Shown: positions 1,817-9,696 of the stretch, piece by piece
Layout of the letters: every line of letters begins with the position of its first letter
How positions within the stretch are numbered: position 1 is the first letter of the stretch
Virus genome (UHGV): UHGV-0065581
Source: a virus
Length of the DNA stretch: 14,166 nucleotides
Direction: 5' to 3' (one strand)
Position numbers and translations under genes: made by a program
Notes under the pieces: generated by a model
The model's database searches: none
Told to the model about the DNA's origin: nothing
What the model saw: only the letters and a program-made list of their open reading frames with translations

Positions 1817-1996
1817 CTTATTATCCTGCATTGTTAAAAACGGCAGAATCCTATGTGACAACAATTAAACGATAGTTAAATGGATTGATGAAAATTAAAA
1901 CTATATAGGTGGATGCTCAGCCTATCGGAGGTAGTCAGGATTTGAATGTCAGTCTGTTGTCGGCATTCTGGCAATGCAATTTGGATAAAGCGGGGA

Positions 1997-2119
1997 TTAA
2001 AAAGATAGAGGCGAGCCGGTCAGGTAGAAATGAATCAGGCTCAAAGTGAAGCGGAAAAGGTCTGTGGCACAAGCTGATGCAGCCATAATTACAGCCTGAT
2101 GATTTGTGGAATGAAACAT
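1997..2119 (-). CDS. Hypothetical 40-aa protein with a consensus Shine-Dalgarno, in the bor-HNH intergenic pocket
   Basis: Minus-strand ATG at 2119-2117 is preceded by AAGGAGGT (complement of 2125-2132) with a 5-nt spacer. It reads MFHSTNHQAVIMAASACATDLFRFTLSLIHFYLTGSPLSF, stop TAA (complement of 1997-1999). It is below the 60-aa cut-off of the ORF track. The C-terminal half is hydrophobic. Confidence 0.35.
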   Translation of the reverse strand: MFHSTNHQAVIMAASACATDLFRFTLSLIHFYLTGSPLSF

Positions 2120-2200
2120 GTTGAACCTCCTTAATTGATGTTATTCGAGTGATGAAGGCATTCTGTCCTTCTATAGTGTCCAGTAAATCAAACAGGAAAC

Positions 2201-2220: not shown

Positions 2221-2341
2221 GCCTCTCCATTAGTGAGTTGTATTGATCACAACTCTACAAAGAATTCATTACTGGGTAGATGAAAATAGTTTCACTATGA
2301 ATGGAGGAGGCTATGTCGGTGGCTTCTTCATTGGAGTACAT

Positions 2342-5291: not shown

Positions 5292-6498
5292 CGCGCCGGT
5301 GACCACGCCAGCAGAGCTGGCGGATGCCATCGGGTTGTCTTACGACACCTATACCGGAAAGCAGATCAGCAGTCAGCGGGCCATGCGACTGACGGCGGTT
5401 TTTTCCTGCGTCAGAGTGCTGGCAGAGTCGGTCGGGATGTTGCCCTGCAATCTGTATCACCTGAACGGCAGCCTGAAACAGAGGGCCACCGGCGAACGTC
5501 TGCATAAGCTGATCTCCACGCATCCCAATGGCTATATGACGCCGCAGGAGTTCTGGGAGCTGGTGGTCACCTGTCTGTGCCTGAGGGGAAACTTTTACGC
5601 CTACAAAGTGAAAGCATTTGGCGAAGTGGCTGAACTGCTGCCCGTCGATCCCGGTTGTGTAGTACCGAAGCTTAACAGTCGCTGGGAACCGGTCTATCAG
5701 GTCACATTCCCGGACGGTTCCACGGATGTACTGAGCCAGGAAGATATCTGGCATGTGCGCACGCTGACGCTGGACGGTCTGGTGGGACTGAATCCCGTCG
5801 CCTATGCCCGCGAGGCAATATCGCTGGCAGCAGCGACCGAAGAGCACGGGGCCAGACTGTTCAGCAATGGTGCGGTGACGTCCGGTGTGTTGCGTACAGA
5901 ACAGACGCTGTCGGATCAGGCTTATGAGCGCCTGAAGAAAGATTTTGAAGAGCGTCACACCGGGCTTGGCAATGCTCACCGCCCGATGATCCTTGAGATG
6001 GGGCTGGACTGGAAGTCGATGGCGCTGAACGCCGAGGACAGCCAGTTCCTGGAAACCCGCAAGTTTCAGCTTGAAGAAATCTGTCGTCTGTTCCGGGTGC
6101 CGTTGCACATGGTGCAGAACACCGATCGCGCCACCTTCAACAATATCGAAGAGCTGGGGCTGGGATTTATCAACTATTCACTGGTGCCGTATCTGACCCG
6201 CATCGAACAGCGGATCAACACCGGACTGGTACGAAAAAGTAAGCAGGGCGTTTATTACGCCAAATTTAACGCCGGGGCGTTACTGCGCGGGGATATGAAG
6301 TCCCGTTTTGAAGCCTACGCCACCGGGATCAACTGGGGAATTTACTCTCCCAATGACTGCCGCGACCTGGAAGATATGAATCCGCGTCCCGGTGGGGATG
6401 TCTATCTCACACCGATGAACATGACCACGAAACCCTCCGATGGCAGTAAAGCCGGTAAGCAGAAGGATAACGCCAATGCAGACGAAACAACGTCTTGA
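5257..6498 (+). CDS. Portal protein, HK97 family
   Basis: 413-aa ORF from GTG at 5257 with GGAGG 6 nt upstream. Position after the large terminase, size and acidic C-terminus fit a portal protein. Confidence 0.88.
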   Translation: MFFSGLFQRKSDAPVTTPAELADAIGLSYDTYTGKQISSQRAMRLTAVFSCVRVLAESVGMLPCNLYHLNGSLKQRATGERLHKLISTHPNGYMTPQEFWELVVTCLCLRGNFYAYKVKAFGEVAELLPVDPGCVVPKLNSRWEPVYQVTFPDGSTDVLSQEDIWHVRTLTLDGLVGLNPVAYAREAISLAAATEEHGARLFSNGAVTSGVLRTEQTLSDQAYERLKKDFEERHTGLGNAHRPMILEMGLDWKSMALNAEDSQFLETRKFQLEEICRLFRVPLHMVQNTDRATFNNIEELGLGFINYSLVPYLTRIEQRINTGLVRKSKQGVYYAKFNAGALLRGDMKSRFEAYATGINWGIYSPNDCRDLEDMNPRPGGDVYLTPMNMTTKPSDGSKAGKQKDNANADETTS

Positions 6499-9250: not shown

Positions 9251-9696
9251 TGGATTTCAGTCTTGATTTTTCAGGTCTGGCGGATATTGCACGGGATCTG
9301 GAGACGCTCAGCAGGGCAGAAAACAATAAGGTACTGCGCGATGCCACCCGTGCCGGTGCTGAAGTTATGCGGGATGCAGTTGTTGAACGTGCGCCGGAGC
9401 GAACCGGGAAACTGAAGAAAAATGTGGTTGTTCTCACTCAGCGTTCAAAGCGTCGGGGGGAAATTATCTCGGGTGTCCACATTCGTGGACGGAACCTGCG
9501 AACCGGAAACAGTGATAACAGCATGAAAGCCAGTGATCTCCGAAATGCGTTTTACTGGCGCTTTGTGGAGCTGGGAACGATAAACATGCCCGCGCATCCG
9601 TTCATTCGCCCGGCTTTCGATACGACAGAGGAACTGGCAGCACAGATTGCCATACAGCGAATGAATCAGGCTATTGATGAGGTCTTAAGTAAATGA
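9250..9696 (+). CDS. HK97 gp10-like neck / tail-completion protein
   Basis: About 148 aa; contains FYWRFVELGT...PAHPFIRPAF, which resembles the HK97 gp10 family signature. Its start overlaps the preceding stop (TGATG). Confidence 0.75.
   Translation: MDFSLDFSGLADIARDLETLSRAENNKVLRDATRAGAEVMRDAVVERAPERTGKLKKNVVVLTQRSKRRGEIISGVHIRGRNLRTGNSDNSMKASDLRNAFYWRFVELGTINMPAHPFIRPAFDTTEELAAQIAIQRMNQAIDEVLSK

Follow-up and report, generated by a model that had tools for sequence, protein, structure and literature searches.

In 2006, Chen and Schneider reportedly described 12 clusters of tandem T7-like promoters in prophage-like islands of enterobacteria that encode no matching polymerase, and proposed that these islands are satellites; the islands reportedly measure 4-13 kb and carry a tyrosine integrase and 17-24-bp terminal direct repeats, and their promoters would transcribe 2-5 phage-related proteins. 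In Lactococcus, Djordjevic et al. reportedly fused, in 1997, a promoter of phage phi31 to a lethal restriction cassette. We know of no naturally occurring equivalent that relies on promoters for phage polymerases, and our literature search found no description of the cassette reported here.

We analyzed a stretch of 14,166 nucleotides (the window) from the virus genome UHGV-0065581, which represents the late region of a lambdoid prophage and stops short of the prophage ends. On the evidence of sequence comparisons, the window contains a predicted promoter array for foreign polymerases in front of a selected micro-gene, an arrangement that the initial annotation of this DNA had missed. The genes are ordered endolysin, Rz/Rz1, bor/iss (minus strand), an unannotated gap of 525 bp, HNH endonuclease, and small and large terminase subunits. 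Positions 1930-2340 are 85% identical to the DNA that separates the lysC/Rz1-type o-spanin gene from HNH in Shigella phage SfIV, which does not carry bor. As the prophage has its own lambda-type Rz/Rz1 (1015-1491) and bor upstream, the lysC relic lies at a mosaic junction near position 1930; on the plus strand, a 46-codon ORF (1909-2049) represents the C-terminal part of the lysC/Rz1-type o-spanin, ending in NLDKAGIKKIEASRSGRNESGSK and a stop codon. Across different lambdoid backbones the slot of the cassette is constant, i.e., lysis genes, the cassette on the opposite strand, and terminase genes. The only ORF in sense orientation downstream of the promoters is the one with 36-40 codons, after which the DNA is antisense to lysis genes or, in the window, carries bor. 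The GC content falls to 0.37 at 2101-2300, where the promoter array is located, versus about 0.5-0.56 in the flanking genes, which is consistent with a foreign origin. Homologous DNA was found in 750 of 5426 complete E. coli genomes (about one in seven), including ST131 strains such as EC958. The RefSeq/PGAP annotation calls nothing in the gap that contains the ORF; precisely this ORF is listed as a "hypothetical protein" in one GenBank phage record, ON470612. Another gap (2692-2840) separates HNH from the small terminase subunit gene; HK97-type cos sites are located between these two genes, and the linear SfIV record stops 58 bp past HNH.

Table 1. Features of the cassette and the adjoining spanin relic; positions are those of the window.
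Feature	Position	Strand	Remarks
Small ORF (presumed payload)	1997..2119	-	ATG to TAA, 40 codons; encodes MFHSTNHQAVIMAASACATDLFRFTLSLIHFYLTGSPLSF
Shine-Dalgarno sequence AAGGAGGT	2132-2125	-	5-nt spacer TCAAC before ATG
Leader, 52 nt	2120..2171	-	5' stem-loop; contains the Shine-Dalgarno sequence
Leader stem-loop GAAGG-ACAGAAUG-CCUUC	2171-2154	-	RNA fold with 5-bp stem
Vectrevirus (SP6-like)/K1-5 consensus promoter ATTTACTGGACACTATAGAAG	2188-2168	-	exact; predicted start G at 2171
Hairpin CTTGTCCAAC-AC-GTTGGACAAG with U-rich tract	2221-2200	-	terminator-like; between the two promoters
T7-group (Studiervirinae, Berlinvirus-type) promoter-like CAATACAACTCACTAATGGAGAGG	2245..2222	-	predicted start G at 2228
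Relic 3' end of lysC/Rz1-type o-spanin gene	1930..2049	+	aligns with full lysC of SfIV and other prophages

The array in the window consists of two promoter-like elements with predicted starts 57 nt apart. Promoters for single-subunit phage polymerases of the T7/SP6 class cover about 21-23 bp (-17 to +4/+6) and combine a specificity region, a TATA-like segment at -4..-1 and an initiating G, a pattern to which both elements conform. With up to 3 mismatches to the SP6 consensus allowed, the K1-5-type element was the sole hit in the window, and shuffled sequences gave none. Its sequence is identical to 4 promoter copies in E. coli phage K1-5, which has about 8 near copies as well, and K1-5, K1E and other Vectrevirus records hold 6-9 copies per genome. 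A search of IMG/VR gave 64 copies of the exact 21-mer within this cassette and another 46 outside it, 45 of the latter in Vectrevirus promoter contexts; the DNA that follows the one remaining copy, near the end of a contig (L238, 77-97), is not the cassette leader and corresponds to no known Vectrevirus context. A transcript initiated at 2171 is predicted to reach the Shine-Dalgarno sequence after 39 nt. As some cassette promoters show a substitution in -4..-1 (TTTAG, TACAG) and some T7-type copies an A>G change at -6, some of these promoters may be weak.

The T7-group element differs from TAATACAACTCACTAATGG by one mismatch, which was equalled in 0 of 200 shuffles. Promoter phi9, annotated in the Yersinia phage Yepe2 (Berlinvirus) as TAATACAACTCACTAATGGGAGA, likewise shows one mismatch with 2245-2227 over -17..+2 and is matched exactly from -16 on by some cassette variants; the T7-type element of SfIV is 1 nt off Yepe2 phi17 and matches T7-group promoters in 316 phage records. 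The hairpin, which has perfectly complementary arms of 10 nt and was flagged as terminator-like by the scan, separates the ORF from the T7-type promoter and could end transcripts that come from this promoter. Among 8 hairpin variants, 96% of cells were paired and two pairs showed compensatory double changes, with U-G wobbles tolerated only in the minus-sense RNA. The palindrome TTGTC(C/T)AACACGTT(G/A)GACAA is repeated, mostly in intergenic positions (e.g., after polymerase and primase genes), in the genomes of SP6-like phages (Molineuxvirinae), i.e., at 6387, 7814, 8794, 14655, 15381 and 27474 in VLCpiA2a, at about 7 sites in UAB_Phi78 and at 9568 in K1-5; in these phages it may serve as a terminator, be cut by RNase III or bind a protein. 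Klebsiella phage VLCpiA2a natively has the hairpin-promoter pair immediately after its polymerase gene, with 91% identity over 47 nt. The presence of multiple hairpin copies in SP6-like phages, together with this native pair, indicates that the parts were probably captured from such phages. One a-type locus has kept the K1-5 promoter and the ORF, with unrelated DNA (CCATCGGAAACGATG…) in place of its T7-type promoter and half its hairpin.

Across related cassettes, the promoter versions covary with phage group. SfIV-type cassettes carry ATTTAGGTGACACTTTAGAAG, which is one mismatch from the SP6/Zindervirus consensus and differs from the window promoter at -12..-10, positions that, judging from T7-class promoters, are taken to determine specificity; a 32-nt match to one UAB_Phi78 promoter was seen in its flanks. 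The type b version, TCAATAGTGGCGAGTATAGAAC, is the one that serves as promoter in the SP6-like Klebsiella phage VLCpiA2a, which has about 12 copies. A further element, TTAATGTTAC(A/C)(C/G)GAGTAGGAA, is added in types b-e; this is a Drulisvirus motif that is present 3 times in KpV41, where it is found directly after the polymerase gene, and exactly over 21 nt in the Klebsiella prophage ST13-OXA48phi12.5. As for the T7-type elements in types b-e, their specificity regions are T7-like, K11-like or of another kind; these cassettes hold three or four promoter-like elements within about 170 nt. Type b-e cassettes occur in Klebsiella prophage records, among others; this host matching rests on phage-database records, most IMG/VR loci carrying no host names. 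In type b-e cassettes, another palindrome, TTGTCTCTTATAAGAGACAA, precedes the T7-type promoter (e.g., within 1380-1590 of locus L256), and an extra promoter-like sequence, ATAAGTTACACAATAGAA, is found in types b-e just before the Shine-Dalgarno sequence; the latter matched nothing in KpV41. The cognate polymerase is not encoded in the window, the largest ORF of which encodes a 585-aa terminase. Similarly, the complete SfIV genome (39.7 kb) shows no polymerase among its 54 annotated genes, and its two cassette promoters are its only such promoter matches.

The initial annotation had reported a 40-codon minus-strand ORF (2119 to 1997) with a Shine-Dalgarno sequence at 5-nt spacing, all of which was confirmed on the sequence, and had suggested that conservation in related phages and the pattern of synonymous substitutions be examined. 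We retrieved related loci via an 18-nt piece of the leader, which leaves the ORF itself unconstrained, and obtained 89 complete cassettes representing 38 distinct sequences and 14 different peptides; genome contigs searched with the same 18-nt piece gave only chance matches in unrelated taxa. All 38 distinct a-type sequences contained AAGGAGGT, the ATG and an open 40-codon frame. In the site-by-site analysis (n = 37; one sequence with a rearranged upstream region was omitted), the ORF was intact in 37 of 37 a-type sequences and it was also intact in 12 of 12 distinct type b-e sequences, i.e., in 49 distinct cassettes with none broken. The 12 distinct type b-e sequences have a strong Shine-Dalgarno sequence, an ATG, an ORF of 36-38 codons and a clear hydrophobic stretch. 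The leader, Shine-Dalgarno sequence and ATG represent the least variable part of the cassette (12-14% variable sites), the Shine-Dalgarno sequence and ATG being identical across all a-type cassettes, and codons 2-20 represent the most variable part (41% of sites). In this N-terminal half, pN/pS was ~3, with 9, 10 and 5 variable sites at codon positions 1, 2 and 3, respectively; these values show no purifying selection there, and neutrality fits them as well as an arms race would.

The final 53 nt of the small ORF are an antisense reading of the lysC tail, from which the hydrophobic half of the peptide stems. The two frames are in a register in which codon position 3 of the ORF corresponds to position 2 of lysC and position 2 of the ORF to the lysC wobble position. 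Within the C-terminal 17 codons of a-type cassettes, all 7 coding changes are synonymous for the ORF (P ~8e-5) and non-synonymous for LysC, in which they cause replacements such as K/R, S/N, G/D and S/L; type b adds three further tail changes of the same kind. Comparisons of types c and d, which included codons outside lysC, gave pS of 0.81-0.92 and pN of 0.26-0.30 (pN/pS ~0.3), indicating purifying selection on the ORF. Judged by these substitution patterns, the small ORF is a selected coding sequence, i.e., a conserved small gene, that was probably born by overprinting the tail of the spanin gene. This finding also supports the earlier suggestion that the ORF is independent of the plus-strand late operon; its orientation, as had been noted, is the same as that of bor/iss (1523-1816).

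Other candidates around the ORF were rejected. About 65 of 80 loci with lysC relatives have no such antisense ORF, so that lysC does not give rise to it as a matter of course. A plus-strand ORF over the promoter array (2149-2283) is open in 28 of 37 a-type sequences and broken in the other 9, with a pN/pS of 0.75, and was not retained as a gene. A 17-nt likeness of the small ORF to the beginning of the K1-5 and UAB_Phi78 spanin genes was taken as chance (E = 0.49). In the protein database, five peptide variants, each from 1-2 contigs, have a normal N-terminus and a frameshifted or fused C-terminus; the existence of these rare variants suggests that the cassette decays occasionally. On the plus strand, i.e., in the late transcript, 2123-2133 carries AACCTCCTTAA, containing ACCTCCTTA, which we take to be the 3' end of 16S rRNA; this is a by-product of the Shine-Dalgarno sequence on the opposite strand and has no conserved partner nearby.

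Some properties that had been attributed to the ORF from its sequence fared less well. The Shine-Dalgarno octamer had been regarded as improbable by chance, but it occurs once in the window versus 0.37 times expected and at least once in 65 of 200 shuffles. The hydrophobic C-terminal half proved to be moderate; the best 19-residue Kyte-Doolittle window of the peptide scores 1.40, below the usual transmembrane level, as compared to 0.90 in the SfIV peptide and >2.0 in types b-e. A small toxic or membrane-active payload, as had been envisaged, is plausible. On the other hand, the more specific reading as a type I toxin or a moron expressed by the host found no support, as no sigma-70-like promoter was detected on either strand in 1500-2900 (2.7 expected in shuffles) and an Rfam scan of the same region at E <= 10 gave chance matches only. 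Neither search thus revealed an antisense sRNA antitoxin with its own promoter, an antisense transcript having been among the proposed checks. A moron is typically an autonomous unit with a sigma-70 promoter of its own and, downstream, a terminator; the only terminator-like hairpin here is located upstream of the ORF. A hok-like mRNA fold, in which the Shine-Dalgarno sequence would pair with CCUCU near the 3' end, was rejected as its energy is no better than that of shuffles (z = 0.05). When six peptide types were scanned against Pfam, PADLOC and PHROGs, nothing meaningful was found; the window peptide showed no homolog in these collections and no PADLOC defence model matched the peptides scanned.

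Expression by a foreign polymerase is favoured because the promoters match those of phages (the K1-5-type one exactly), their specificity is switched between cassettes, neither a cognate polymerase nor a sigma-70-like promoter was found, the hairpin covaries in a way that suits only the minus-sense RNA, the slot is shared by unrelated lambdoid backbones, and the ORF is selected. The ORF is thus probably switched on only when a T7-like or SP6-like virus attacks the cell. From these comparisons we infer promoter activity, translation, toxicity and a defensive outcome, and we lean towards a "promoter trap", in which a small and probably harmful peptide would be made only upon infection by an Autographiviridae phage and would lead to abortive infection. 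The ORF would be the payload of a cassette that lies in lambdoid prophages between lysis and packaging genes and points toward the lysis genes. As the cassette lacks a promoter for the host polymerase, the payload would be silent in an uninfected lysogen; its tandem promoters would respond to no polymerases other than the single-subunit ones that virulent Autographiviridae encode, the hairpin between them would block read-through, and the leader would provide a 5' stem-loop and a consensus ribosome-binding site in the manner of a pET vector. Once a matching podophage makes its polymerase, the ORF would be strongly transcribed and translated, and the C-terminally hydrophobic peptide of 36-40 residues would harm the cell or block the invader, through membrane damage or premature lysis, so that the infection is aborted and sibling lysogens are protected. 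In a broader form, which we put forward more tentatively and which falls just short of what we would call probable, the cassette may be a natural immune module by which temperate phages that live in Escherichia, Shigella and Klebsiella keep a silent micro-gene behind a stack of exact promoters for the polymerases of podophages preying on these hosts; the stack would be exchanged or tuned by host genus, and the polymerase of the invader would itself write the suicide or blocking signal.

We consider each of several other explanations less likely than defence by a harmful or blocking peptide. The prophage might borrow the polymerase of the invader for its own benefit rather than for defence, like a satellite, in order to express bor/iss, to keep its own lysis genes silent through antisense transcription or to sustain leftward transcription over a long distance. 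Such a use would agree with the downstream position and same orientation of bor/iss in the window and with the reported proposal by Chen and Schneider (2006) that tandem T7-like promoters in enterobacterial islands mark helper-dependent satellites. However, SfIV and types b-e lack bor, the transcript past the small ORF would be antisense to the spanin, endolysin and holin genes, and the features that are conserved are the Shine-Dalgarno sequence, the ATG and the ORF itself; moreover, T7-like phages degrade the host DNA, which would leave little gain for a resident prophage, and we regard this use as unlikely. It also seems improbable that the cassette is a functionless relic, i.e., a scrap of intergenic DNA from an SP6- or T7-like phage that entered by illegitimate recombination, with the ORF arising as an accident of the reversed spanin tail. 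Consensus-grade promoters have been kept for three or four phage groups with their specificity positions cleanly swapped, the hairpin shows compensatory changes, substitutions favour the frame of the small ORF over that of LysC, the pN/pS between types c and d is low, and the small ORF is unbroken in all distinct cassettes while the plus-strand ORF over the array is broken in 9 of 37. These observations weigh against a relic even though the hairpin and promoter are native to the region after the VLCpiA2a polymerase gene, the GC content dips over the array, an antisense reading of a charged tail would yield a hydrophobic one, and the N-terminal half of the ORF shows no purifying selection.

Expression of the ORF by the host, as a small membrane peptide or type I toxin made in the same way as bor, was the view of the initial annotation, and the small size of the ORF, its strong Shine-Dalgarno sequence, its hydrophobic C-terminus, its position in a typical moron slot and its co-orientation with bor all agree with it, as does the late transcript, which would be a natural antisense RNA. 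We nevertheless assign this view a low probability, given the lack of sigma-70-like promoters in a region in which shuffles would yield some, the upstream rather than downstream location of the terminator-like hairpin, the absence of an Rfam family and an mRNA fold no better than that of shuffled sequences. Finally, the cassette might act at the RNA level or as a decoy, by titration of the polymerase, by collisions or through a functional RNA, in which case translation of the ORF would be incidental. The greater conservation of the promoter array and leader as compared to the N-terminal half of the ORF, as well as the stacking of up to four promoter-like elements in Klebsiella-type cassettes, would fit such a role, but a single chromosomal copy would be a poor polymerase sponge, and the invariant Shine-Dalgarno sequence and ATG and the frame-specific substitutions indicate translation; this role, too, appears to have only a small chance of being correct.

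If the proposed defence by an infection-induced peptide is true, the cassette would represent an anti-phage system without a sensor protein, in which the activity of the invader's polymerase is sensed through a DNA promoter sequence alone and in which the effector is a peptide of ~40 residues, a size missed by annotation pipelines. It would also explain the unannotated homologous DNA in the E. coli genomes mentioned above, it predicts phage escape through altered polymerase or promoter specificity, and therapy with K1-5/K1E-type and T7-type phages could be affected. In addition, the locus would present a small gene that has apparently arisen by overprinting the tail of a spanin gene.

Compared to the islands reported by Chen and Schneider, the cassette is similar in that at least two tandem T7/SP6-class promoters occur in phage-related DNA with the matching polymerase absent. 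It differs from them in its location at the lysis-packaging junction of full-size lambdoid phages (e.g., SfIV) and in that it drives one ORF of 36-40 codons instead of 2-5 protein genes. Like bor and other lambdoid morons, it is flanked by the lysis module and the packaging module, runs opposite to the late operon and has a low GC content; unlike the cassette, in which no such promoter was found, morons have their own sigma-70 promoter, a downstream terminator and expression in the lysogen. The proposed action resembles that of hok/sok, a type I toxin-antitoxin system, against T4, as a small hydrophobic peptide would be unleashed by infection. However, the trigger of hok/sok is decay of the antisense RNA after host transcription is shut off, while the trigger proposed here is positive, i.e., the polymerase of the invader, and neither a host promoter nor an sRNA gene of the type I kind was found. 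As in the phi31 suicide cassette, a lethal gene would be placed under a promoter that is activated by an infecting phage only; the phi31 cassette, on the other hand, is man-made and uses a phage transcriptional activator that acts on the host polymerase. The layout is that of a pET cassette or the T7 gene 10 leader, with a phage-polymerase promoter, a 5' stem-loop, an AAGGAG-type Shine-Dalgarno sequence at optimal spacing and an insulating upstream terminator, and, like pET, the cassette is predicted to be silent without the polymerase; unlike pET, it is natural, prophage-borne and equipped with multiple promoters, and its payload is a micro-ORF.
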